This document shows, piece by piece, positions 3,752 through 39,538 of a stretch of 39,842 bases of DNA. Position 1 is the stretch's first letter; the number at the start of each line of letters is the position of its first letter. Origin of the DNA: Christensenellaceae bacterium (GTDB lineage Bacteria; Bacillota; Clostridia; Christensenellales; Borkfalkiaceae); NCBI GenBank assembly GCA_045644785.1, contig JAZRHN010000027.1, positions 1 through 39,842 on the forward strand, given 5' to 3'. Under the pieces are notes generated by a model. It did not search any database. It saw only the letters and a program-made list of their open reading frames with translations, and had not been told where the DNA came from. Made by a program: the position numbers and the translations under genes.

Positions 3752-3964
3752 ATGGGATTAACTGACAAGCAAGTAGAAAAAGAGATTGAGAAGTTACAAG
3801 AATCGCCTTATGTGAAGTTGGCGAAATTGGAAGAACGAATCCGTTATAAGAGAAGACAATATTTATATTGTTTAAGGCAGTATGAGAAAAAGGGTAAAGA
3901 ATTAGCGGATTCAGGGATAACGATTGAAGACTTAAAAAGGATAGACAAGGAGAGTGACAAGTGA
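3752..3964 (+). CDS. Hypothetical protein (70 aa, charged and helical)
   Basis: The ATG at 3752 has an AAGGAGAA RBS. The track start at 3701 would run through the operator site. Confidence 0.6.
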   Translation: MGLTDKQVEKEIEKLQESPYVKLAKLEERIRYKRRQYLYCLRQYEKKGKELADSGITIEDLKRIDKESDK

Positions 3965-4182
3965 GTTACGAAGAAAGGGAAAAGATGTTTTCCAAAGACT
4001 ATTTAACGATTAAAGACTTGCAAGACCTATTAGGGCTACCGTATCAAGTTGCTGCAAGGAAGATGCGTGAGATTAAGTTTAATTACGATAGATTGGGAAT
4101 ACAGGGCAAAATTCATATTGAAGATTATTTCGAATATTTCAATATAACTGACAAGCAAAGATATGTTAAGGAGAGAATATGA
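3961..4182 (+). CDS. Excisionase-like / MerR-type HTH DNA-binding protein
   Basis: 73 aa. The segment YLTIKDLQDLLGLPYQVAARKMREIK resembles Xis-type HTH. GTG start with an AAGGAGAG RBS. Confidence 0.5.
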   Translation: MSYEEREKMFSKDYLTIKDLQDLLGLPYQVAARKMREIKFNYDRLGIQGKIHIEDYFEYFNITDKQRYVKERI

Positions 4183-4358
4183 TTACGAAATGCACAAGGG
4201 AACAAGGAATTAAAGCAAAGGTAAAGTTAGGCATTGAATTAACCAAGCAGGAAGAAAGTTTTTATTTATTGTATTACGCAAACTACAACGAACGTTGCGA
4301 GTATATGAGAAATAAGAAAGGGGGAAAAGGCGATGAAACTTTACGAGCAAATCACTAA
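4179..4358 (+). CDS. Small hypothetical protein (59 aa, MITKCTREQGIKAKV...)
   Basis: Below the track cutoff. ATGA stop-start overlap with the upstream gene and an AAGGAGAG RBS. Confidence 0.4.
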   Translation: MITKCTREQGIKAKVKLGIELTKQEESFYLLYYANYNERCEYMRNKKGGKGDETLRANH

Positions 4359-7801: not shown

Positions 7802-8374
7802 ATGAATTATAGACAAGTCATTGCGATTGAAAACAAAAATAAAAAGCGTTTAACCGACTTGTTTGGCAATATTCCTGATACTAGCGGTATTTACATTTTA
7901 ACGCGTAGAGAAAATGGTTTTAAGTATGCCTACATAGGACAAGCAAAACATCTTCTAACGCGGTTATCACAACACTTGGTAGGTTATCAGCATATCGACT
8001 TAAGCCTAAAAAAACACGGCTTGAAAAGTAAAGATAATCCATTCGGGTGGAAAGTTGATTTTATGGAATACCCCGAAGACCAACTTGACTCTAGAGAGCA
8101 GTTTCTAATTAAACAATACGCTAATGTCGGCTGGCAATTAAGAAACAAGACCGCAGGCGGACAAGGCGAAGGAAAATTCGAGATTGCGGAAACTAAAGAG
8201 CGAAAAGGTTATCGAGACGGATTGCTGCAAGGTTATAAAAACGCGCAAAAAGACATATCAAAGTTATTTGATAAAAACCTAACTTTTGGTATTAATGGCA
8301 CAACGAATAAGAATAAAGAGAAAGCGCTGCAAAAGTTTAAGGATTTTTTAGGGGGAGAAGATGGCGGAATATAG
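7802..8374 (+). CDS. GIY-YIG domain nuclease
   Basis: SGIYILT...YAYIGQAKHLLTRLSQH matches the GIY...YIG...R pattern. Confidence 0.7.
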   Translation: MNYRQVIAIENKNKKRLTDLFGNIPDTSGIYILTRRENGFKYAYIGQAKHLLTRLSQHLVGYQHIDLSLKKHGLKSKDNPFGWKVDFMEYPEDQLDSREQFLIKQYANVGWQLRNKTAGGQGEGKFEIAETKERKGYRDGLLQGYKNAQKDISKLFDKNLTFGINGTTNKNKEKALQKFKDFLGGEDGGI

Positions 8375-9098
8375 AAAGGATAAATTTTATTGGTTTAAGT
8401 TGAAAGATGATTTCTTCAAACGCCACGATATTAAAATTATTAAATCTATGCAGAACGGAAAAGATTACGTTATTTTCTATCTTCAGTTGCTATGCGAAAG
8501 TTTATCGCACGAAGGCAAGTTAAGGTTTAATGAAGAAGTTCCATATAACGAAGAAATGCTTTCAGTTATAACCGACACGAACATAGACGTTGTTAGGTCG
8601 GCGATGAAGTTGTTTAGGCAGTTAGGACTTATTGAAGTTATGGACGACCAAACAATTTATATGACTAAACTTCAAAGTATGATAGGTAGCACTACAATAG
8701 GTGCTGAAAAAAAGCAGATTCAATTAGATAGAAAAAAACAAGAATTATTAGGGGGTGGAACAAAGGTGGAAAATTTTCCACCAGAGATAGAGAAAGAGAA
8801 AGAGATAGAGATAGAGATAGAGAAAGATAATAATAATTTAAATAATAATAAACAAACATACATAACTAACGGCGTTGCGTTGTTTAATGCAATTCTTGAA
8901 GAAATTAGGGATAATATCACACCGCTTGCTTATAAATCATTTATCGGAAAGATAGAGTGTGTCGGAATAAACGGAAATAGAATCGTAATTAATAGCATTA
9001 CACCAAAAATGATAGATGATAATTATGGCGAGATAATTGTTAAGGCAATAAGAAAGGTAAGCAATAGCGAGTTAGTTGGGTATGAGTGGGGAGAGTAA
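8361..9098 (+). CDS. Phage replisome organizer (N-terminal domain family)
   Basis: FYWFKLKDDFF...MQNGKDYVIFYLQLLCESLSHEGKL is typical of replisome-organizer N domains. There is an internal low-complexity EIEKEKEIEIEIEK segment. Confidence 0.75.
   Translation: MAEYRKDKFYWFKLKDDFFKRHDIKIIKSMQNGKDYVIFYLQLLCESLSHEGKLRFNEEVPYNEEMLSVITDTNIDVVRSAMKLFRQLGLIEVMDDQTIYMTKLQSMIGSTTIGAEKKQIQLDRKKQELLGGGTKVENFPPEIEKEKEIEIEIEKDNNNLNNNKQTYITNGVALFNAILEEIRDNITPLAYKSFIGKIECVGINGNRIVINSITPKMIDDNYGEIIVKAIRKVSNSELVGYEWGE
8765..8862. other. Candidate replication origin inside the replisome-organizer gene
   Basis: Perfect 18-bp palindrome GGTGGAAAATTTTCCACC (8765-8782), then GAGATA/GAGAAA iterons (about 8784-8828), then an AT-only stretch. 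Confidence 0.4.
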
Positions 9099-9102
9099 GG
9101 TT

Positions 9103-9351
9103 GTGAAAAATAAGTTGTTTGTGTGTAAGGAAAAATACAAAAATAATCGTTGCTATATTATAACAACGTGCAAGAATAGGGCAAAGTTTCTTTTTTATTT
9201 AGAGTATAACGAGTGTAAGTTTGAAGATATTACTTGCAATCTTGTAGAAGGTGTTAATGTCAAAAATCAAAAAGAGCAAATGTTAAAGGAAACATCGCCG
9301 TTTATTAAGAGTTTAGGGATAGGTTCTAAAGATGCAAATATCAATATTTGA
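9103..9351 (+). CDS. Hypothetical protein (Cys-containing, 82 aa from GTG 9103; the track ORF starts at 9076)
   Basis: ORF with a GGGGAGAG RBS-like sequence before GTG 9103. The start is uncertain. Confidence 0.45.
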   Translation: MKNKLFVCKEKYKNNRCYIITTCKNRAKFLFYLEYNECKFEDITCNLVEGVNVKNQKEQMLKETSPFIKSLGIGSKDANINI

Positions 9352-10255
9352 CGGTTCAATGCCTTTTAAGATAGATAAACCGATAAGGCTTATAGAGTTA
9401 TTCGCAGGCTATGGTAGTCAATCACTTGCGTTAAAGTATTTAGGTGTTCAATATCAACACCACAAAATAAGCGAGTGGGCGGTAAGGTCAATTCAAGCGT
9501 ATAAAGATTTACATTTTAGTGAAGATACTACCGATTATTCTGACGGACATAGTATTGAAGAAATTAAAAACTTCTTAAAAGGTAGAATAAGTTACGATTA
9601 TTCAACGCCTGCAAGTGATGAAAGAATAAACAAAATGTCTGAAACAGAATCAAGAAAGATTTTCAGTAATATGGTGTGTTCGAAAAATTTAGGTTCTATT
9701 ATGGGAATTAAAGGCGAAGAATTAGAAATAACCGATACCGATAAATACTGCTACATAATGACTTATTCGTTTCCTTGTCAAGATTTATCAAGTGCAGGCA
9801 AAGGTGCAGGTATGGGTAGAGATAGCGGAACACGAAGCGGTTTGTTATGGGAAGTGGAAAGACTGCTTAAAGAAACACCAAATTTACCACAAGTGCTTTT
9901 AATGGAAAATGTGCCTGAAGTAATTGGAACGAATAATATTAAACATTTTGCACAATGGGTAGAGTTTTTAGAAAGGTTAGATTACAAGTGCAAGTGGGGC
10001 GTGTTAAATAGTAAGAATTTCCAAATACCGCAAAATAGAGAGCGATGCTTTATGGTTAGTGTTTTAGGAGATTATTATTACGATATGCCTGAAAGTTGCG
10101 GACTAAAACTTAAACTTAAAGATGTGTTGGAACATAACGTAGATGAGAGTTTTTACTTGTCGGATAGGATTGTAAACTACTTTGAAAACCATAGCAAAGA
10201 GTGTGAAGAAAAGGGAAACGGTTTTAGGTTTACCCCGACTGATGGGGGGGTATAG
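9332..10255 (+). CDS. DNA (cytosine-5)-methyltransferase, N-terminal catalytic portion (motifs I-VIII), ending 2 codons after a G7 tract
   Basis: FAGYGS (motif I), SFPCQDLS (IV), ENVPEV (VI), QNRERCF (VIII). Reads GAT GGG GGG GTA TAG at 10241-10255. Confidence 0.85.
   Translation: MQISIFDGSMPFKIDKPIRLIELFAGYGSQSLALKYLGVQYQHHKISEWAVRSIQAYKDLHFSEDTTDYSDGHSIEEIKNFLKGRISYDYSTPASDERINKMSETESRKIFSNMVCSKNLGSIMGIKGEELEITDTDKYCYIMTYSFPCQDLSSAGKGAGMGRDSGTRSGLLWEVERLLKETPNLPQVLLMENVPEVIGTNNIKHFAQWVEFLERLDYKCKWGVLNSKNFQIPQNRERCFMVSVLGDYYYDMPESCGLKLKLKDVLEHNVDESFYLSDRIVNYFENHSKECEEKGNGFRFTPTDGGV
10244..10250 (+). repeat. Poly-G tract 1 (G7)
   Basis: Counted in the sequence. Lies at the frame junction at the end of the MTase N-terminal ORF. 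Confidence 0.95.
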
Positions 10256-10317
10256 GTCGGACAATAACAACGCGAGCAGGCGGACGTATGGACGATAACT
10301 ATATCAAAGAATTATGA
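10252..10317 (+). other. TRD-like module 1 (IGRTITTRAGGRMDDNYIKEL), read only if tract 1 gains one G
   Basis: Manual translation of the frame starting at 10252. Ends at TGA 10315-10317, which overlaps ATG 10314-10316 of the next ORF (ATGA). Confidence 0.4.
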
Positions 10318-10511
10318 ATAAAAAACTAATTGCGACTCTTGAGAAAGAGAGAGAAAAAATAATTAAGGGGGGGCAGATAGGGTATATAGATTGCTACAAC
10401 AAAACGATTTACAATGACGGGATTTGTGGAACAATAACGACAGGCGTAAGTTTTAGAAATCAATCCTTTATCATCGAATATGACGTTAGAACAAATAGCG
10501 AATTGGAATAG
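10314..10511 (+). CDS. MTase TRD-like fragment, module 2 (..GICGTITTGVSFRNQSFIIE..)
   Basis: 65-aa ORF with no RBS of its own but an ATGA overlap upstream. Contains the G7 tract in frame (KGGQ). Confidence 0.4.
   Translation: MNKKLIATLEKEREKIIKGGQIGYIDCYNKTIYNDGICGTITTGVSFRNQSFIIEYDVRTNSELE
10367..10373 (+). repeat. Poly-G tract 2 (G7)
   Basis: Counted in the sequence. Confidence 0.95.
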
Positions 10512-10686
10512 CCGACAAAATCCACTTGAAAAGGTTTATGGCAAGGAAAGTATCGCACCTACAATAACAACAAGGGTTGCAGAAAGTATAGGGGGGGGTA
10601 TAAATGCATCTACAATTCTTATATGCGAAGATTTTAACGAAATAAGAAATTTGCGAGATATATACCGAACGAAATATGAAAAGTAA
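10480..10686 (+). CDS. MTase TRD-like fragment, module 3 (..VYGKESIAPTITTRVAESIGGG..)
   Basis: The frame is open from 10450 and there is no RBS before ATG 10480. Contains the G8 tract in frame. Confidence 0.35.
   Translation: MTLEQIANWNSRQNPLEKVYGKESIAPTITTRVAESIGGGINASTILICEDFNEIRNLRDIYRTKYEK
10591..10598 (+). repeat. Poly-G tract 3 (G8)
   Basis: Counted in the sequence. Confidence 0.95.
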
Positions 10687-10846
10687 TATAAAAGTTTGGG
10701 ACGGCTTTAATCAACAAATACGCAAAGATAGTTCGTGTGTAGGAACGATAACACGGAACGTAGGTGCGGACTTGAAAAGAAACGGACAAGGAATTATTGA
10801 GGGGGGGTGGATATGGAAGATAGAAAATATAGAATACGCAAATTAA
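10676..10846 (+). CDS. MTase TRD-like fragment, module 4 (MKSNIKVWDGFNQQIRKDSSCVGTITRNVGADLKRNGQGIIEGG..)
   Basis: 56-aa ORF found by manual translation (below the track cutoff). A +1 G change in tract 4 would fuse it to the motif IX/X domain. Confidence 0.35.
   Translation: MKSNIKVWDGFNQQIRKDSSCVGTITRNVGADLKRNGQGIIEGGWIWKIENIEYAN
10801..10807 (+). repeat. Poly-G tract 4 (G7)
   Basis: Counted in the sequence. GAGGGGGGG lies 5 nt upstream of ATG 10813 and could also act as a Shine-Dalgarno sequence. Confidence 0.95.
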
Positions 10847-11061
10847 CACCAAAAGAGTGCTGGCGTTTAATGGGTGTGAAAGATGAAGATTATGAAAAGG
10901 TTGCAAAAAATCAAAGTAATTCAAGTCTTTATCACTTGGCAGGCGACAGTATAGTAACAAGTTGTCTTATGGCGCTATTCGGGGAAATGACCGATATTGA
11001 CTATAAGGGAAAAATTAAAAAATTAGCGGAGAGTTTAAGAGATGAGAAAGAAAACGATTAA
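10807..11061 (+). CDS. DNA (cytosine-5)-methyltransferase C-terminal portion (motifs IX-X)
   Basis: YRIRKLTPKECWRLMGV (motif IX) and LAGDSIV (motif X, GNS-like). The start may be GTG 10807 or ATG 10813. Confidence 0.8.
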   Translation: MDMEDRKYRIRKLTPKECWRLMGVKDEDYEKVAKNQSNSSLYHLAGDSIVTSCLMALFGEMTDIDYKGKIKKLAESLRDEKEND

Positions 11062-12520: not shown

Positions 12521-13252
12521 ATGAAATATATAGGAGCAAAAACAAAGATAGCAAAGGATATTGTGCCTATTATACAAAATTATATTGACAATAATAATAT
12601 TGAACTTTACATAGAGCCTTTTGTTGGGGGGTTTAACGTAATTGACAAGATAAAGTGTTATAAGAGAATTGGTAGCGATATTGATTGTCTTGTAACTGAT
12701 TTAGTAATTGATTGCAAGAATAACCCAAAACTATTAGTAAACTTGCCTGAACTACCAACGAGAGAACATTATTACGATGTAAGAGATAATGCCGAACATT
12801 ATAGTAATTGGTATAGGTCTGCAATACTTTTATTTGCAAGTTATAATGCAAGGGTTTATGGTGGTTGTTATGGGGCATTTGCTAAAACAAAAGACGGCAA
12901 AATTAGAAACTATTTTCAAGAAGCAAAACGAAATTTTGAAAAACAATTACCTTTATTGAAAGATATTGAAGTTCAATGTAAAGACTATAAAAGCGTTTAT
13001 TGTGAAAATGCCTTGATTTATTGCGATATACCTTATAAGCAGAGCATAGGTTATTCTACCGACTTTAAGCACGAAGAATTTTATGATTGGTGCGAAAAAC
13101 AAACAAAACAAGGTAACATAGTGCTTGTTAGTGAATACGAAATGCCTGAAGGTAGATTTGAGTGTATTTGGCAAAAACAAGTAAAAACACATCAAAACAA
13201 TAGGAATAAACTTGATAAGGTTGAAAAACTATTTATTTGTAAAGGAGAATAA
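12521..13252 (+). CDS. DNA N6-adenine methyltransferase (D12/Dam-like)
   Basis: MKYIGAKTKI N-terminus, EPFVGGFN (motif I), CDIPY (DPPY-like motif IV). Confidence 0.8.
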   Translation: MKYIGAKTKIAKDIVPIIQNYIDNNNIELYIEPFVGGFNVIDKIKCYKRIGSDIDCLVTDLVIDCKNNPKLLVNLPELPTREHYYDVRDNAEHYSNWYRSAILLFASYNARVYGGCYGAFAKTKDGKIRNYFQEAKRNFEKQLPLLKDIEVQCKDYKSVYCENALIYCDIPYKQSIGYSTDFKHEEFYDWCEKQTKQGNIVLVSEYEMPEGRFECIWQKQVKTHQNNRNKLDKVEKLFICKGE

Positions 13253-32071: not shown

Positions 32072-35000
32072 ATGTATAATCCTCAAGAATTACAAAGAAA
32101 GGCGCAACTTAACTTACACGGCGTTGATAACAACGCACAAACGAACTTAAGCAACAATGTAACGGCAACGAGTGAAGAAAACGAGCAAGGTTGGTTTACT
32201 AGAGGGCTTGCAACGGTAGGTAATGTTGTAAGTAACATTTTAGAAGGCGCAATCAAGTCAATGGAAGGCGGTATCGATGCTACCGCTATGCTAGTTGGGT
32301 TATTTGGTGCGGACGTTGACGATTTTGTAAGTTACGATTTTACAAGCGATATTTTCGGAACTGATGAAGAAAACGAGGGATTGCTTGATTGGACGTGGGG
32401 CAAGAATTTAGAAGCCACGTCTTATTGGGATAACGATACAATGGTAAATCAAGTGGCAGAAGGCATAGGCGGTATGTTACCGTCTATTGCCTTAAGTTTT
32501 ATTCCTTACGCCGGACCGATACTTTCTAAAGTAGGGTTCTTTGCAGGTGCAATGGGTAACGCATCTGAAACCGCGTTAAAGGAAGGTTCGTCTTATGAAA
32601 AAGCACTTGGTTATGGTGCTTTAAGTGGTGCGATAGAATTAGGAACAGAGTTTATCGGTGGTCGTGTTGTAGGTAAAGGCGGTGGAGAAGCAATAAATAA
32701 AACATTACTTGGCAAACTTGCTACTAGAACAGGTGCTGATAAGGTAATTTCTAAAGGTGTTGGAAAAGTGGCTTACAATTTTGCATCGGAAGGTTTGGAA
32801 GAAGTTGCTGCGGACTTATTAGATGTTGCTAATAGAAGAATCACAGGTGTTGAAAAAGATGCCAAAGTAGATTGGGCGCAGTTGCCGAAGACGTTTGTAG
32901 TAGGTGGTGCAGTTGGTGCGGTTCTTGATGGCATTCAAGGTGGTGCATCGGCTATATACAATAATAAGCGTGGTGGAAAACACTATGTAAGGGTTTCGGA
33001 AAATTTGGAAAATATTGCTAACACTAACAAGGCTTTAGCGTATTTGCAAGAATCGAAATCTATTTCACAGGATAAATTAGATAAGGCGGTTATTAGGAAC
33101 ACCGAAAGAACTATGGATTCTTTAGAAGAAATCTCTAAAGAATTTCAAGCAATGACTGCCGAACAAAGAAAATCGGCATTTGAAACATTAAGAGAAAGCA
33201 CGTCATTCATAGATAACGCGCTTAATAGTGACGGAACAATTAAAGAAAGTGTTCTCGAAAATTATTCAGATGTTGTAAATAATGGTGCGAAGTATAATGT
33301 TTCTAGCAATTTATTATACAATACTACCGAAGTGGAAAACGATATTACTGATATAAATAAACAAAAAGAACTTAATATCGAATTATCTGACACTACTTTT
33401 GATGCCGAACAAAGAAAGAATTTTGCAAAGATAAATAGAAATATTAATCTTATTAGCAAAAAGACTGGCACGGAATTAGAGTTGGTAGTATTTAAGGATA
33501 ATAAAGATGTCAATGCGTTTATAGATAATAATAGAATTTATATAGGCGAAGAACACTTAAAAGACGGAAAGTGGGCAAAGTATTTGTCGCACGAAATTTC
33601 TCACTTTGCTAAAGATAGTAAAGAGTTTAAGAGTTTTGCCGAATTTATTGCTAAAGATGAAAAGGCATTAATGGACGCGTTTAGCAAAATTATTAATTCT
33701 AGGTATGATTTTACTTATAGTGAAGTTAAGAGTATTGTTGAAAGAATTAAAAACGGAAATGTTGGTTTACTTACTGCCAAAGAAAACGCTATTTACGATG
33801 AACTTGTTGCACACGTTGCCGAAGATTTGTTTACTAATGAAGAAAGCATTAATCGTTTAGCAAGAGAAAATACTACTATTGCGCAAAAAATACTTAATGC
33901 TATTAAAGACTTTTTGGCTATTTTTAAGGGAACTAATGCGGATAGAGATACTGTAGTTAGATTAAGAAAAGCCGAAATTCTTTTTGAAAAGGCTTTAGAT
34001 TCTATCGGTAAGGAAGCCAAAACAGTTGATGTTTTGGGAGAAGATAAGGTTGGCGAAAGCAAAACGGATAAGTTAAGATTTTCAAGGAAAATAATTGATA
34101 ACGCTATTGATAAAGCAATTAAGCAAAAAGGCAATTTAGAAGAGAAATATAATCAGATACGTGTATCAAAATTTCCAAATGATGTATCACGAATGGTTGC
34201 AAATGCATCAAATGGGGAAATTAATCTATCGGATAAATATGTTGCTATTAGTGGATACGATATTTGGCACGAGTATCAAAGACATAGTAACGTTGAAGTT
34301 GAAACTAGTAGAGGGCAAATACCTTTAACTAACGATAGTATAAAAGAAGCAGTTGAGGCTATATACTATCCTGATATGATAGAAAGTTTGTTTTCTACAA
34401 ATGGAAATCCAAAGCAAAGAAAAAGTTTTGCATACGCAAAAAAATCCCCTCACGGTTACTACATTGTGGTAGAAGCGGTAGGGGGAAGAAGGAATCCGAA
34501 TGTTGTTCCTGTAATGATTCTTAATTTTAGTGAAACCAAGTGGAATGAGATGATGTCTAATGATTATACGCTTGGGGAATTATTGTATGAAAATGATGAA
34601 AGTTTAAAAAATTCACTTAATATTGAATTTAATAAAAAGAACCGAGTTATTGTGGCGCAATTTGCTTCAAAAAAAGCCATTGCTAATACTCCACATTCTC
34701 CTCAGTTCAATAATATTTTATCACAAGATAATGATATTGTCAATAGAAATGAAAAATTTTCTTTTAAGCATAATGATGAAATTCCCGATTTTGATACAGT
34801 AGAAAGTTTGGATAAATGGTTTGATAGTTTGTCTTTTAAGGAATTGCAAGAACTTGTTTCTGAAATTGAAGAAGATATTAAAGAAGTTAAAGTAGAACAA
34901 CTACCAATATCTAAACAAGAACGTCGAGAAATTGTTGTTAAAAGATTATACGAACAAGGTACTTTAAACAAGTTTGTTACTAAAGTAGTTAAAAGTAAAC

Positions 35001-38000
35001 CTCAAATGGAAGACTATTTTAGAGAAACAAAAATGAATAACAAGTATAATCCTTTGATGCCAAGTAAAGCCGATGAGTATGTTGTAATGTTTCACGGAAC
35101 GCCCGAACAATTTAACGAGTTTGATACCAAAAAGGTTGGTAAGCACGGTTCGGTTATGGGTAGTGGTTTATATTTTACTAGTAATTATTCTTATGCAGAA
35201 GATTATAAAGAATATGACGATGGTAGAGTAATTGCATCTATATTAGATATAAAGAAACCCTTATCTAGGAATAAACACGAGATATCAAAAGATGAATTAA
35301 AAACCTTTATTAAAGAAGTTGTTGATGCTACTGGAGAAGATTTCTTATCTAATTATGGTGATGTATATTCGATTGGTTACGATAAGTTATTAGATAATAC
35401 TGCTGCGAAACTGCTTGATTATTGGTCGAATGATGCTGATTTAATAGAAGATATTTATGTGGCAAGCAGAATGGATTTTGATGAATTTCATAATGGCTTA
35501 ACTGAAGTTTTAGGCTATGACGGAATAATCGCTTGGAACAAAGCGGAAGGAACACAGGCGGTTGTTTTTAGGTCAAATCAAGTTAAGGAAATATTTAACT
35601 ATAAGCCTACAAAATCTAACGATATTCGTTTATCACGCAAACAAAGTGACGGAGAAGTAACCAAAAAACTTGCAAACTACACAAGAAAGAAAGTATATAG
35701 CAAGGTAGAAGCCGAAAGAACTATCAACACTATACTAGAAAGCAATTTCGGTTTAGAAGATTACAACGTAGAAATTTCGGGAAAGACCAAAGCGGAAGCG
35801 GTTGATGAACTTTGGAAGAACTTTAACACTTTAGATGCAGGCAAGAGAACGGGCGCTGCGAATAAGATAGCCGACTACATAATTGACAACGCGGTTATGG
35901 AGAGTTATTTTGCCGAAGCGGAAAACGATGTTTACACCGAAACGATTGATACTTTAAGACCTTTCTTACATAGCATTGATTTATCACACATAAGAGAAGA
36001 AGTCAAATATCGTGGCGACAATAGTGTGTATTTATTATGGGGAAAGAAAAAGGGCGAAAGTGGTATGACTGCCGACCAAGTGGCGCAAAGACTTGGGGAA
36101 CAAGGTATTAGGATTAATGCCGAAAATGAAGCGGACATTTTCTTTGAAATTGACGAAATGTATCGTAAGGCAGTTAAAGAACTTAAAGCCAAGACCGAAG
36201 AACAAGTTAAGGATTACTTAAGTGCGGAAGATAGAAAGCAACTTCGTGGCGATATTGCAAAGGCAATTTTAAGGGGCTATGAAGAAAATGGTAAAAAGTC
36301 AAAGTTTGCCGAAATTGTAGAAGAACAATCTAAAAACGCAAGAAAGTGGAAAGAATTATATTACGAAGAAAAAGGGCGTAATAGCGCGGAAAGTAAACTT
36401 CTATATCAAGTGCAAAAGATTAGGGATATACACTTTGGCGATTTCCAAAACGCTTCACAAGCGGACAATAAAATCTTTAGGGGTTCTATTGAGAAGTTAT
36501 CGGCAATTAAAAATCGTGGCGACTTAAACAAAAGTGGCACGCGTAGGATTATTGCAGGATTAAATACTTGGTATAATGAAGAAAATCCATTGCTTAATGG
36601 TAGATATAGTCAAGAAATATCTACTGCCCTTAATCAAATTGCATCTGGCGAAGGTAATCTTACTACTGCCGAAATTAGAAACCTAACGGACGTAGTTGCT
36701 TATTTTAGACATTTTATAGAAACCGCTAACAAGATTTATCGTGCAGGTAAGTATATCGATGCTATGCCTATTGCGGAAGATTATGTTCGTAAGTTACACG
36801 ATAATGAAAAAATACAATTAGGAACAGTTGGCAGAGTTTTTGATAAAACATTTAACAATTCTAGAGCAAACTATATGGAAACCTTTAACGACCCGATGAC
36901 AGTTGTTCGTTATATGGATAAATACGATAATGGTTTCTTTACTCAAACTATGGAAGAATTTAGAGATTGCGCGGTAAACGCTGCGATTCTAGAAATGGAC
37001 TTAAACGCACCACTTGAAGATTTTTATAAGAAACATAAAACTTTCTTAAAAGATGCGGGTAATCGTATGATAAACTATAATGGCGTGCAAATCCCTGCTA
37101 TTGATGCGTTTAATTGTTATATGGCGCTTAATAGAGAAGAAGGTATGCTTAAACTTGCGTGGTCTGGCTTCAAATGGGTAGATAAGAAAGGTAAGACTAC
37201 TAGTGTTGACGGATTTGTAACTGATAGTGATTTTGGCTATGAAACAGTTAAGTTCTTGGCAAATGAAGTTCAAAGCGAATTAGAAAAGCAATTTACTGAA
37301 ACCGATTTAGAGTATATTAAAATCGCGGAAGACTTGTTTAATAATCGTTGTAAGGAATTGAAGAAAGAGAGAGACTTATCTCGTTACGGCTATTCTAATG
37401 TATCTGACAATTATTATATTCCTATTGCAGTAGCAAACGTTGCAAAAAGTATTGACGTTGACGGGTGGCAATCTGAAGTAGATAGAGTAAGTAATTTATC
37501 GTTTAACAAAGCAACTGTAAAAGGTGCTAAAAACGAAATGCTTATCGAACCGCTTAATGTTGTTTTAACTAGACATTTAAGAGGTATCGCACAGTATTAT
37601 CACTTGTCAAATGCGGTCGATAACTATGACATTATATATAATATGGATACGGGCGGTAACAAAAACAAGGTTATTAGCGTAAAATCCGAAAGTAAAAATG
37701 TATGGCAACACGGCGAAGAGTATATGGAAGAAATGCTTTCCGATATTCAAGGAATTAAGAAAGGCAAATCAAGTAAAATGTTTGGTTTTGTTCGTAGCAA
37801 CTACGCGAAATATCAACTTGGCGCAAATCCAAAAGTTTGGTTTACTCAATTATCGTCTTTCTTTGCTTCAACGAGTATTTTAGATTTTTCTTCGGTAGTA
37901 AAAGGCTTAGGTGTTAGTGCTGATGATGTTGATGTTTATTGTAGGCTTGCCGAATTGCGTAATAGTGATGATACCGCTGCAAGGGCGCAAGGTAACTTAA

Positions 38001-39538
38001 GTGATACTCAAGGCGACGGTGTTGTATCTAAGGTAAGTGATACGCTTATGAAACCTATTGGCGCTATGGATAGGTTTGTTATTAAAAAATTGTTTGGTGC
38101 TTGTCAAGTGCAAGTGCAAAAAGATACAGGGCTTAAAATAGGAACTGAAGAAAACAAAGTTAAGGCAGGCGAATTGCTTAAGAAAGTTATTCTTGAAACG
38201 CAACAAAACGCTATTGCAACGGAACGTTCAATGGCGATGCGCTCTACTAGCGAACTTATGAGAACGCTCACGATGTTTACTTCGGATTCTATGAAAGTTA
38301 TCGGTAGGGTGATTGATGCTTATGGCGAAATTACAATGTTAAAGGCAAGAAAGAGAATAACTTCTGATAGCGCCGAACTTGCAAGACTAGATGCCGAATT
38401 AAAGAGAGCAAATAAAAAGGCATTAAAAGCAACTGCATCACTTGTTACGCAGGCGGTATTTATGGCTTTAATTGCACAAGCATTTAAAACATTATATAAT
38501 AAGGACGATGAAGAAGAGAATATTGTTGAAAATATGACGGTAGATGCAATCGGGAATTTGTTTGGTGGTTTACCTTTATTCAAAGATGCTTATGCTAAAC
38601 TTGTTGAAGGCTATGATTTTGACGGCTATCAATATTCTGCGTTTAATGACTTATTAGATTCAACTTCTGATATGCTTGATTTGGTAGGTGCAATCTTTAA
38701 TGGCAGTGCTGATTCAAGAGATTTTGCACAAAACATTAGAAAGTTATCGTATGCTATCGGTCAATTATTCGGTATTCCCGTAAGAAACGTATATAATGTT
38801 GTTTTTGGTTTAGTTAATAGAGTAAGTCCCGAAACGGGTTATAAGTGGAACGATAAATTCTACAAGCAATCATATTCTAAAGACTTAAAGCGAGCAATTA
38901 AAAACGAAGACGAAGAAATGATTGCAACTATTGCAGGCTTGATTATGGACGAAAATATTGGAAGTTTTGAAAATTCGGCAACAAGAAAAGAAATAAGTCG
39001 TCTTATCGGCGCGGAATACGATGTTCTTCCGCAATCCGTTCCGTCAAGTGTAACAATCAATGAAGAAACAATTACTCTCACAGGCTCACAAAAGAAAGCG
39101 TATAAGGAAGTTTATTCGCAATCTATAACCGCGATAGACAAACTTGTATCTACTAATGGATATAAGGTTGCAAGCGATGATGCAAAGGCAAAAGCGGTTA
39201 AATACGTTTACAAGTATTATTATTACGAAGCACAACAAAAAGCATTAAATATCGAATTGGATAGCAAGTTGTATTTATTCGGGCAAGTTATTCCTATTGA
39301 CAAAATGGCTCTTATTTTGGCAGAAGTGCCTACGATAGCCGACAAGTCAACGAATAAGAAACAAGCCGTGCAAAGATACTTGCAAGGCGCGAAATTAACC
39401 GCTACACAAAAATATATGCTTATGGGTTACTTTGGATATAAGAATACCAACGGCAAGAGTGCAGTAGAAAGCACGATTAGCAAAACTTCACTTGCTAAAG
39501 CGCAAAAAGAATTGCTTTTAGAAAAATGTGGATATTAA
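32072..39538 (+). CDS. Giant polyvalent protein (2488 aa) with metallopeptidase-like, RNase-like and ADP-ribosyltransferase-like segments
   Basis: Uninterrupted 7.4-kb ORF. HEISH (HExxH) at nt 33590-33604. ..ISGYDIWHEYQRH.. at about 34250-34285. VVMFHGTPEQFNEFD ... GSGLYFTSNYSYAEDY ... AEGTQAVVFRSNQVKE at about 35080-35600. Gly-rich hydrophobic N-terminal region. Confidence 0.75.
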   Translation: MYNPQELQRKAQLNLHGVDNNAQTNLSNNVTATSEENEQGWFTRGLATVGNVVSNILEGAIKSMEGGIDATAMLVGLFGADVDDFVSYDFTSDIFGTDEENEGLLDWTWGKNLEATSYWDNDTMVNQVAEGIGGMLPSIALSFIPYAGPILSKVGFFAGAMGNASETALKEGSSYEKALGYGALSGAIELGTEFIGGRVVGKGGGEAINKTLLGKLATRTGADKVISKGVGKVAYNFASEGLEEVAADLLDVANRRITGVEKDAKVDWAQLPKTFVVGGAVGAVLDGIQGGASAIYNNKRGGKHYVRVSENLENIANTNKALAYLQESKSISQDKLDKAVIRNTERTMDSLEEISKEFQAMTAEQRKSAFETLRESTSFIDNALNSDGTIKESVLENYSDVVNNGAKYNVSSNLLYNTTEVENDITDINKQKELNIELSDTTFDAEQRKNFAKINRNINLISKKTGTELELVVFKDNKDVNAFIDNNRIYIGEEHLKDGKWAKYLSHEISHFAKDSKEFKSFAEFIAKDEKALMDAFSKIINSRYDFTYSEVKSIVERIKNGNVGLLTAKENAIYDELVAHVAEDLFTNEESINRLARENTTIAQKILNAIKDFLAIFKGTNADRDTVVRLRKAEILFEKALDSIGKEAKTVDVLGEDKVGESKTDKLRFSRKIIDNAIDKAIKQKGNLEEKYNQIRVSKFPNDVSRMVANASNGEINLSDKYVAISGYDIWHEYQRHSNVEVETSRGQIPLTNDSIKEAVEAIYYPDMIESLFSTNGNPKQRKSFAYAKKSPHGYYIVVEAVGGRRNPNVVPVMILNFSETKWNEMMSNDYTLGELLYENDESLKNSLNIEFNKKNRVIVAQFASKKAIANTPHSPQFNNILSQDNDIVNRNEKFSFKHNDEIPDFDTVESLDKWFDSLSFKELQELVSEIEEDIKEVKVEQLPISKQERREIVVKRLYEQGTLNKFVTKVVKSKPQMEDYFRETKMNNKYNPLMPSKADEYVVMFHGTPEQFNEFDTKKVGKHGSVMGSGLYFTSNYSYAEDYKEYDDGRVIASILDIKKPLSRNKHEISKDELKTFIKEVVDATGEDFLSNYGDVYSIGYDKLLDNTAAKLLDYWSNDADLIEDIYVASRMDFDEFHNGLTEVLGYDGIIAWNKAEGTQAVVFRSNQVKEIFNYKPTKSNDIRLSRKQSDGEVTKKLANYTRKKVYSKVEAERTINTILESNFGLEDYNVEISGKTKAEAVDELWKNFNTLDAGKRTGAANKIADYIIDNAVMESYFAEAENDVYTETIDTLRPFLHSIDLSHIREEVKYRGDNSVYLLWGKKKGESGMTADQVAQRLGEQGIRINAENEADIFFEIDEMYRKAVKELKAKTEEQVKDYLSAEDRKQLRGDIAKAILRGYEENGKKSKFAEIVEEQSKNARKWKELYYEEKGRNSAESKLLYQVQKIRDIHFGDFQNASQADNKIFRGSIEKLSAIKNRGDLNKSGTRRIIAGLNTWYNEENPLLNGRYSQEISTALNQIASGEGNLTTAEIRNLTDVVAYFRHFIETANKIYRAGKYIDAMPIAEDYVRKLHDNEKIQLGTVGRVFDKTFNNSRANYMETFNDPMTVVRYMDKYDNGFFTQTMEEFRDCAVNAAILEMDLNAPLEDFYKKHKTFLKDAGNRMINYNGVQIPAIDAFNCYMALNREEGMLKLAWSGFKWVDKKGKTTSVDGFVTDSDFGYETVKFLANEVQSELEKQFTETDLEYIKIAEDLFNNRCKELKKERDLSRYGYSNVSDNYYIPIAVANVAKSIDVDGWQSEVDRVSNLSFNKATVKGAKNEMLIEPLNVVLTRHLRGIAQYYHLSNAVDNYDIIYNMDTGGNKNKVISVKSESKNVWQHGEEYMEEMLSDIQGIKKGKSSKMFGFVRSNYAKYQLGANPKVWFTQLSSFFASTSILDFSSVVKGLGVSADDVDVYCRLAELRNSDDTAARAQGNLSDTQGDGVVSKVSDTLMKPIGAMDRFVIKKLFGACQVQVQKDTGLKIGTEENKVKAGELLKKVILETQQNAIATERSMAMRSTSELMRTLTMFTSDSMKVIGRVIDAYGEITMLKARKRITSDSAELARLDAELKRANKKALKATASLVTQAVFMALIAQAFKTLYNKDDEEENIVENMTVDAIGNLFGGLPLFKDAYAKLVEGYDFDGYQYSAFNDLLDSTSDMLDLVGAIFNGSADSRDFAQNIRKLSYAIGQLFGIPVRNVYNVVFGLVNRVSPETGYKWNDKFYKQSYSKDLKRAIKNEDEEMIATIAGLIMDENIGSFENSATRKEISRLIGAEYDVLPQSVPSSVTINEETITLTGSQKKAYKEVYSQSITAIDKLVSTNGYKVASDDAKAKAVKYVYKYYYYEAQQKALNIELDSKLYLFGQVIPIDKMALILAEVPTIADKSTNKKQAVQRYLQGAKLTATQKYMLMGYFGYKNTNGKSAVESTISKTSLAKAQKELLLEKCGY

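Follow-up and report, generated by a model that had tools for sequence, protein, structure and literature searches.

A split phage C5-cytosine methyltransferase locus in which each reading frame carries its own poly-G tract: a likely array of contingency switches

Is a phage methyltransferase gene that is divided into overlapping open reading frames (ORFs), each with a long run of G residues, a damaged gene or a set of switches? The question is raised by a C5-cytosine methyltransferase locus in a 39,842-nucleotide (nt) stretch of DNA from a Christensenellaceae bacterium (contig JAZRHN010000027.1), the whole of which is termed the window. The locus consists of tandem ORFs that encode, in order, a catalytic core with motifs I–VIII plus a first target-recognition domain (TRD1), then TRD2, TRD3, and finally TRD4 plus motifs IX/X, with one poly-G tract each. 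The original prediction, made from the window alone, was that of a phase-variable, split phage C5-methyltransferase of combinatorial specificity. This central idea is supported by a comparison of tracts between relatives, by a natural G8 allele in one related locus (L088), by enrichment of tracts in the gene and by purifying selection. We consider it fairly likely that the locus represents a split, multi-TRD phage C5-methylase governed by several independent contingency switches. A phage population can probably turn each methylation specificity on or off independently, and in this way hedge against host restriction.

The four tracts are non-random in the window. A scan of its entire length (35% GC) finds exactly four runs of at least seven G residues, tracts 1–4 below, and all four fit inside 564 nt within the methyltransferase locus. 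The next longest G run is a G6 at 12626–12631, and C runs of at least five are absent from the whole window. Tract positions and lengths match those first described, as does the remark that no other G or C run reaches seven; the DNA word ACAATAAC(A/G)AC is also recovered at its three positions (10261, 10431 and 10561). The chance expectation for runs of at least seven G is a mean of 0.67 per window, and the probability of four or more is 0.004 (2000 mononucleotide shuffles). GGG is the rarest Gly codon in the window, with 10.3% of Gly codons outside the locus, and GGGGGG is used for one of the 46 Gly-Gly dicodons outside the locus. There are 24 runs of 7–8 A or T residues in the window.

The layout below was obtained from the ORF list and a three-frame translation of the window; lengths are in amino acids (aa).

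9332–10255, + strand: ORF1, the alpha part as assembled, 307 aa, with FAGYGS (motif I), FPCQDLS (motif IV), ENVPEV (motif VI) and QNRERCF (motif VIII)
10244–10250, + strand: tract 1 (G7), at the core/TRD1 boundary; the best match to homologues across it is obtained at +1 (G8), i.e. OFF as assembled
10252–10317, + strand: TRD1 (IGRTITTRAGGRMDDNYIKEL), in frame 1, joined to ORF1 only at G8 (or G5)
10314–10511, + strand: ORF2, the TRD2 cassette, 65 aa, MNKKLIATLEKEREKIIKGG-QIGYIDCYNK..CGTITTGVSFRNQSFIIE
10367–10373, + strand: tract 2 (G7), inside ORF2 and in frame, ON; a change of ±1 truncates ORF2 to 21–34 aa
10480–10686, + strand: ORF3, the TRD3 cassette, 68 aa, MTLEQIANW..PTITTRVAESIGGGINASTILICE; it starts, with ATGA, 30 nt before ORF2 stops
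10591–10598, + strand: tract 3 (G8), ON, encodes the conserved GGG of TRD3; at G7, ORF3 stops two codons on
10676–10846, + strand: ORF4, 56 aa as assembled, TRD4 (DGFNQQIRKDSSCVGTITRNVGADLKRNGQGIIE) and then a tail that is out of frame
10801–10807, + strand: tract 4 (G7), at the TRD4/motif IX boundary, unfused/OFF as assembled; G8 joins ORF4 to the C-half
10807–11061, + strand: C-half, motif IX (RIRKLTPKECWRLMGV) and motif X (AGDSIV), starting at GTG 10807 or ATG 10813, or continuing from ORF4 at G8

Both ends of the locus are recognizable as parts of a C5-methyltransferase, in keeping with the two halves first proposed. ORF1 matches the Pfam profile PF00145 (E 2e-38) and contains motifs I (FxGxG), IV (PC), VI (ENV) and VIII (QxRxR). 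The C-half matches positions 272–322 of the same profile (E 5e-7), with RKLTPKECWRLMGV and AGDSIV both downstream of the variable region. A public protein collection includes, as a called gene, the 82-aa product that starts at ATG 10813. GAGG lies 10 nt upstream of this ATG, and tract 4 is, from its sequence, a candidate Shine–Dalgarno-like element for it. The four TIT(T/R) modules and their frames come out of the three-frame translation as originally given.

Enumeration of the products for G5–G10 at each tract reveals that unit changes in length shift between full and truncated product. At G7 in tract 1, ORF1 ends at TAG 10253–10255, ahead of TRD1; at G8, a 328-aa product results that ends at TGA 10315–10317, which overlaps ATG 10314. 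A G8 in tract 4 gives a 128-aa fusion of TRD4 with motifs IX/X, and ±1 changes in tract 2 or tract 3 truncate their ORFs. These outcomes, including shortening of tract 3, are identical to those worked out by hand in the original prediction, and its arithmetic for an in-frame deletion between tracts 1 and 4 is correct. As assembled, the window is predicted to have TRD1 OFF (G7), TRD2 ON (G7), TRD3 ON (G8), and TRD4 made but unjoined to motifs IX/X (G7).

Can the tracts by themselves explain why the gene is split? Of the five frame changes, only two coincide with a tract (tract 1 or tract 4); tracts 2 and 3 are read in frame within their own ORFs. The other three are at stop–start junctions that have no homopolymer, at ATG 10314, 10480 and 10676. 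Each of these starts is part of an ATGA, a stop in the +1 frame, and the +2 frame stops within 8, 30 and 11 nt, respectively. The sequence ATGAATAA, in which the ORF2 start lies, shuts both other frames, and so does ATGAAAAGTAA at the ORF4 start. It had been thought that the homopolymers divide the region into modules; instead, this is done by the conserved ATGA junctions, with one tract per ORF. Because the segments between tracts have stops in all three frames, a single ORF is impossible at any combination of tract lengths, and the split is therefore hard-wired and not a tract state. The concern raised at the outset, that some set of tract lengths might restore one conventional ORF, does not apply to the window. 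Programmed frameshifting at the junctions was considered and rejected: the frame step from ORF1 to ORF2 is +2 in the window and +1 in the related locus L001, there is no zero-frame stop or rare codon, and the alternative frames are closed at each ATG.

It is of major interest whether tract lengths vary in nature. Relatives were found by protein search, and all comparative data are metagenome assemblies at the consensus level. Their probable hosts, judged from prophage-bearing contigs of metagenome-assembled genomes (MAGs), are gut Bacillota, including Christensenellaceae, Eubacterium, Blautia and Erysipelotrichaceae. One relative, L088, is from another sample and has 92% nt identity to the window. 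It carries G7 at tract 1, an out-of-register tract 2, G8 at tract 3, an extra cassette with G6, and G8 at tract 4. Within the locus, single-nt indels between L088 and the window are found only at tracts 2 and 4. The G8 of L088 fuses TRD4 to motifs IX/X in a called 131-aa PF00145 gene, which is the fusion that had been predicted for such an allele. L001 has the same ORF2 and ORF3, and its tracts are G9/G9/G7/G9; the end ORFs read through their tracts (ORF1 is ON by homology and the last is ambiguous), and the two middle ORFs are OFF (G9 at tract 2, G7 at tract 3).

The layout of one ORF and one tract, with overlaps of 4–50 nt, is seen again in six loci. The number of ORFs is three in L002 and five in L091, and L089 has a series of six, with as many tracts. 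The ATG starts and overlaps are kept across ~25% nucleotide divergence. A second group consists of four IMG/VR phages of ~49% GC (L004, L005, L007 and L027), which share 98% identity across 845 nt and have indels at G runs only. Run lengths are 9/7/9/7 where the core meets TRD1 and 7/6/6/6 ahead of motif IX, and there is one G5/GGGCGG site besides. Tract position is conserved, length is polymorphic among close relatives and indels are confined to the repeat, as is found with contingency loci. The search of related phages that the original prediction had called for has thus turned up conserved tracts of differing length (L088, L001 and the IMG/VR group).

In the same four phages, two frames are open for ~100 codons downstream of tract 1 (~3910–4200) and encode different TRD-like modules, one with AHTIKTEGGYRP..NFIIE and ..CRTVDTKGTNGVVE, the other with ..TTANTIMARDCKSFGNQ. 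Perhaps tract length there may select between alternative TRDs, beyond simple ON/OFF switching.

The window lineage is sparsely represented. In a collection of 15 billion proteins, it is found only as the window, L088 and one 619-nt contig, and the exact sequences of the hypothetical G8 products of the window are absent from that collection. A megablast search of 50,697 GenBank phage records with the locus gave no match, nor did exact-pattern scans of IMG/VR for conserved ORF2 and ORF3 DNA; the same ORF3 pattern matched one JGI metagenome contig, L091.

Family statistics are based on 71 non-duplicate loci, with flanks that total 452 kb. Runs of at least seven G or C occur at 0.90 per kb in the variable region vs 0.029 per kb in the flanks, a ~31-fold enrichment, so that tracts exceed what composition and the rest of the genome would provide. 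Tracts are present in the gene in 26 loci, and 24 of these 26 are not a single ORF (Fisher p 1e-7). The state of each tract was called from the length that best restores homology across it: 15 are ON, 24 need ±1 (OFF) and nine are ambiguous, i.e. 62% (24/39) of callable tracts are out of register. This is close to the ratio of one-third to two-thirds expected for free switching and is far above any consensus error rate. When ±1 changes were enumerated at every G or C run of at least six in each locus, a single ORF could be restored in only three loci. The window is not one of them, and the possibility that a homopolymer miscall hides one ORF was rejected on this basis.

Frequent disruption of a frame does not imply loss of constraint on what it encodes. 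Pairwise ratios of non-synonymous to synonymous substitution (dN/dS), read through the tract in the ON register, are 0.06–0.24 for ORF2 and 0.00–0.22 for ORF3. ORF3 of the window and of L088 differ by no non-synonymous change at all, with a dS of 0.22. The mini-ORFs are thus under purifying selection. Contingency loci are classically recognized by a low dN/dS in combination with frames that are often disrupted, but at repeats only, and the presence of this signature here argues against decay. The conserved GGG of TRD3 is encoded by GGGGGGGG in the window, L088 and L001, by the interrupted GGTGGGGGG in L089 and by GGCGGTGGC in the tract-free L090. Because the same tripeptide has G8, interrupted or tract-free coding across relatives, tracts can be said to be built by codon choice.

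Repeats other than poly-G are found in the gene as well. An (AG)9 is present at the core/TRD1 boundary in L093, the same position as tract 1, and a (GA)10 directly precedes motif IX in L031, at the boundary equivalent to tract 4. Copies of AGAGC are repeated in the proximal variable region of L041, L077 and L072, as (AGAGC)9, (AGAGC)6 and (AGAGC)3, respectively, and (TG)7 and (AC)7 are found elsewhere in the gene in other lineages. Such non-homopolymer repeats are ~8-fold denser in the gene than in the flanks. The occurrence of different repeats at the same functional positions points to convergence.

What the four modules represent can be judged from single-chain homologues. The conceptually fused protein, used as query, has thousands of homologues, the best of which are intact 450–650 aa proteins with 96–100% query cover, and single-chain homologues hold the same modules next to each other in one frame. 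A conceptual protein made up of core, TRD1 and C-half can be aligned from one end to the other with M.MpeI (E 3e-39), and it aligns with M.HhaI also; TRD1 aligns with the variable region of M.MpeI. TRD1 (..TTRAGGRMDDNFI..) is found in most single-chain homologues, with 76–84% identity to in-frame TRDs, and TRD4 (DGFNQQIRAD..GTLTRN.GADLKRNGQGIIE) in many of them, with 55–83% identity. TRD2, including its leader, is in frame in two proteins (P0116 and P0108), minus the five poly-G-encoded residues IKGGQ, and stand-alone TRD2-type homologues of 64–72 aa exist. TRD3 (MTLEQIANW..PTITTRVAESIGGGINAS..) forms the N-terminus of beta subunits. For example, the 168-aa P0123 has TRD3, TRD4 and motifs IX/X in one frame, and P0124 likewise fuses TRD3 with a further TRD and motifs IX/X. 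A profile search shows that more distant versions of TRD3 sit inside single-chain enzymes.

Four distinct modules are therefore located between motifs VIII and IX. Since single-chain homologues carry them side by side in frame, they are four different specificity modules; the suggestion that modules 1 and 2, and modules 3 and 4, are alternative versions of each other is not borne out. The window does not have all of its TRDs and motifs I–X in one polypeptide; they are distributed over four ORFs.

The split itself is a family trait. In five tract-free relatives (L009, L012, L033, L067 and L090), the gene is a clean pair of overlapping ORFs, alpha and beta, and the window shares with them the end of alpha and the start of beta (MTLEQIANW), its own beta part being further subdivided. 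The break is within the variable region and gives overlapping alpha (I–VIII) and beta (IX–X) ORFs. In a set of 1.8 billion cluster representatives, short proteins (82–130 aa) are common that match the profile at its motif IX/X end, some of them with a TRD in front and some with none.

Cassettes, moreover, are portable. The window and L088 differ by one whole cassette, the extra one in L088, exactly at the junction sequence ATGAAAAGTAA. TRD2 is inside the array in the window and L001; it follows a complete gene in L002, and in L096 it follows a methylase gene of 898 aa that contains an intein. In the latter two it is a stand-alone mini-ORF after the methylase stop (L002 5342–5536, L096 2501–2707) of 64–68 aa, with a G7 in frame, and it overlaps the preceding methylase gene by 8 nt through ATGAATAA. 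A shufflon-like mechanism was dismissed; among ten ORFs scanned in the window, the only recombinase is the integrase encoded on the – strand at 125–1246.

How might such a locus function? Tract lengths would change by slipped-strand mispairing during phage or prophage replication, and each TRD would thereby be turned ON or OFF in a manner that is heritable yet reversible. The stop–start junctions would reset the frame, whereby a frameshift in one cassette spares the downstream cassettes and the essential motifs IX/X; because of this reset, the switches would be both independent and combinatorial. The internal ORFs are probably translated by termination–reinitiation coupling, since their three ATGs have no Shine–Dalgarno motif, which is present at 33 of 36 other gene starts examined in the window. 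It is presumed that the pieces come together as an active enzyme, by analogy with M.AquI alpha/beta and with artificial C5-methylase fragments. The pay-off would be a form of bet-hedging, i.e. progeny with different sets of 5-methylcytosine marks, and these sets would, depending on the host, either protect against classical restriction or avoid methyl-dependent (Type IV) restriction.

It should be pointed out that several observations weigh against a set of independent switches. When an upstream cassette is OFF, translation terminates 60–100 nt before the next ATG, and because of this early termination coupling would be weakened and the switches would be less independent than proposed. The absence of Shine–Dalgarno motifs from the internal starts counts here also. 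A G7 is short for a highly mutable tract. We know of no free-standing TRD polypeptide that works in trans, and ORF3 alone, modelled by AlphaFold2 with an 11-sequence alignment, has a predicted local distance difference test score (pLDDT) of 47.8 and no confident fold. An OFF share of about two-thirds is the share expected without selection on state. No tract polymorphism was found among the near-identical contigs L092–L095, nor between L096 and L097; the former, from four samples, all have G9 and all the same (AG)9, and thus consensus tract lengths can be stable. In L090, a tract-free alpha/beta relative, an in-frame stop at ~2610 replaces the Glu of the ENV motif VI (..ILLM*NVPEV..). This nonsense codon suggests that some copies decay; the stop may be inactivating, or it may be read through. 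Lastly, within-population switching and reversibility are predictions from consensus assemblies, and the methylation activity of group members is predicted from motifs and homology.

A more far-reaching proposal can be put forward tentatively, as a possibility on the less probable side. The short ORFs might be free-standing TRD subunits that dock in trans on the alpha/beta core, similar to HsdS specificity subunits. The ATGA junctions would then be an evolved frame-insulation device, and the stand-alone cassettes of L002 and L096 would be add-on specificity subunits. If this is so, n independent switches would give up to 2^n methylation repertoires per phage locus.

Is it possible that only the ends of the array matter? 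An M.AquI-like alpha/beta enzyme would be switched at tracts 1 and 4, and ORF2 and ORF3 would be silent spares that are recombined at the junctions. Such an arrangement would account for internal starts without a Shine–Dalgarno motif, for the failure of ORF3 alone to give a confident fold, and for cassette content that differs between close relatives exactly at junctions, as with the extra cassette of L088. It would also fit the two locations of the ORF2 cassette, which is part of the array in the window and L001 and comes after a complete gene in L002 and L096, and the occurrence of the same cassettes fused in frame in some relatives (P0123, P0125). However, a silent cassette has no need of its own tract, and each mini-ORF has one. 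In addition, purifying selection on the mini-ORFs is strong in their own frames, tracts included, and the conservation of ATG starts and overlaps over ~25% nucleotide divergence is difficult to reconcile with silence. We regard this explanation as unlikely.

A less probable alternative still is that the DNA is fixed and slippage takes place at expression. Transcriptional or ribosomal slippage at the G runs would mix the products, with no heritable phase variation. It is general knowledge that homopolymers can provoke slippage of both RNA polymerase and the ribosome; formally, G GGG GGG is an X XXY YYZ sequence, and the tract lengths of L092–L095 are stable across four samples. Nevertheless, tract lengths differ between close relatives at the DNA level, and there are no single-nt indels other than these. 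The (AG)n and (AGAGC)n repeats at the same positions elsewhere are classical DNA phase-variation repeats and not expression slippery sites. Expression slippage is therefore a doubtful explanation.

The locus could also be a decaying pseudogene, a dispensable prophage methylase that is being lost through frameshifts accumulating at homopolymers. Most tract-bearing copies are indeed not single ORFs, about two-thirds of the tracts are out of register, and L090 has its nonsense codon in motif VI. Decay is made very improbable by cassette dN/dS values of 0.00–0.24 and by disruptions of frame that are confined to repeats and not spread over random sites. The runs consist of the least-used Gly codon, in a genome of 35% GC, and are enriched ~31-fold in the gene, which also speaks against decay, as do the different repeat types at the same boundaries in other lineages and the retention of the same ORF boundaries in many lineages. 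Finally, although the assemblies are metagenomic throughout and homopolymers are error-prone in sequencing, an assembly or sequencing error that conceals one conventional ORF can be dismissed as extremely improbable, given that three of the five frame changes are away from homopolymers and that one ORF is not obtained with any set of tract lengths, that the window has long + strand ORFs tightly packed in spite of its 24 A/T runs of 7–8 nt (an argument from the overall layout), that the same boundaries are found in independent assemblies from different assemblers and sources (ENA, Logan, JGI, IMG/VR and GenBank MAGs), and that the 62% out-of-register rate is far above any consensus error rate.

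With independent contingency switches as the preferred reading, the locus can be compared with known systems. The Bacillus phage enzymes M.SPRI, M.Phi3TI, M.Rho11sI and M.H2I, from work of the Trautner laboratory and with references listed in PMC8936443, are reportedly multispecific single-chain C5-methylases with tandem TRDs of ~40–60 aa between motifs VIII and IX. They resemble the window enzyme in being phage C5-methylases with several tandem TRDs and in a presumed role in self-protection against several restriction systems. In contrast, they are single polypeptides without repeats, whereas the window has a TRD per overlapping ORF with its own poly-G; relatedness of the cores is only ~31–35%.

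M.AquI and M.EcoHK31I are natural two-subunit C5-methyltransferases, and fragment complementation has been described for M.SssI, M.BspRI and M.HhaI (PMC3404938). The M.AquI type, like the window locus, is split in the variable region into overlapping ORFs, alpha with motifs I–VIII and the proximal part, and beta with the distal part and motifs IX–X. It has two fixed subunits and one specificity, whereas the present loci have 3–6 ORFs and several TRDs, with a repeat switch for each, and their enzyme would be active in more than two pieces.

Phasevarions of Type III mod genes and poly-G tracts are established in Campylobacter, Neisseria, Haemophilus and Helicobacter (PMC8355987; PMC5149525). There, as proposed here, homo-, di- or pentanucleotide repeats in a coding region switch a methylase by frameshift. 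In the bacterial cases, a chromosomal Type I/III gene of a pathogen has one ON/OFF switch, which gates the whole enzyme; here, several switches in one C5-methylase locus of temperate gut-Bacillota phages would each gate a specificity module. Poly-G tracts are also reported in receptor-binding proteins of Campylobacter Fletchervirus (Sorensen, 2021); repeats are known in T2/T4, and a poly-G tract is mentioned in a methylase gene of a Bordetella phage (PMC12633550). The common feature is hypermutable homopolymers in a phage genome that give heritable diversity of progeny. The Fletchervirus and T2/T4 repeats, however, affect host recognition or unrelated functions, and the Bordetella phage has a single tract that was never studied; TRD cassettes arrayed with a tract for each are described in none of these cases.

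Each ingredient is known by itself: methylases subject to phase variation, phage methylases with several specificities, C5-methylases in split form, and poly-G tracts in phages. The literature searched, which mostly did not cover subscription journals, has no description of poly-G or other repeats in a multi-TRD C5-methylase of a phage. Within that literature, the combination of a frame-insulated array of TRD mini-ORFs, each with its own repeat, in temperate phages of gut Bacillota is undescribed.

Phage methylases are a main counter-defence against restriction and are generally treated as fixed traits. If the tracts switch as proposed, temperate phages of common gut Bacillota would have their own means of generating diverse methylation. 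A single lysate would be a mixture of particles, some protected from different restriction systems and some escaping methyl-dependent restriction. There would be consequences for the prediction of host range, for horizontal transfer in the gut, and for attempts in long-read metagenomics to link phage to host by methylation motifs. The architecture suggests a general solution to the problem of placing several frameshift switches in one gene while sparing the downstream parts. It also raises the possibility that recognition modules of C5-methylases can function as polypeptides of their own, a property that could be put to use in the engineering of targeted methylation. Annotation pipelines will label such loci as broken or as pseudogenes, and in the collections searched they appear as many small unnamed ORFs.

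Tracts are found in other methylase genes also. There are nine same-strand runs of at least seven G in the flanks of the relatives; five are in PF01555 N6/N4 methylase genes and one is in a stand-alone TRD2 cassette. The five are G7–G9 in length and lie next to the C5-methylase (L002 6784, L005 2310, L044 5677, L057 7046 and L074 1231), and that of L074 is out of register. In the window, the G6 at 12626–12631 is a codon-aligned GGGGGG inside 12521–13252, which encodes a D12-class N6-adenine (Dam-like) methyltransferase (PF02086, E 2e-12), and it may represent a short or incipient tract in a second methylase. L002 has a G10 tract at 1229–1238 in a 317-aa ORF (971–1924) without a Pfam match, and L093 has an (AG)8 at 465–480, where a PAPS-reductase-like gene (PF01507) splits into ORFs 249–512 and 493–1170. 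Perhaps repeats may also gate other genes associated with DNA modification.

Intein or Hint domains (PF14890, PF13403) occur in homologous methylases of 820–970 aa (P0026, P0032, P0037, P0073, P0113, P0115 and P0119), and the intein-containing methylase at L096 1–2508 also has a faint LAGLIDADG match.

A few features of the remainder of the window can be mentioned. Its + strand is purine-rich (G 8557 vs C 5488, A 14674 vs T 11123), and from 3.7 kb onward nearly all long ORFs are on this strand. A tRNA scan found no tRNA genes in the window. In the replication module, an ORF with a GIY-YIG domain (7802–8374; PF01541, E 3e-6) is directly upstream of the replisome-organizer gene (8361–9098). At the right end of the structural module, a single ORF of 2488 aa (32072–39538) has only weak matches, to PHROGs of unknown function, and is presumably a tail or host-interaction protein.

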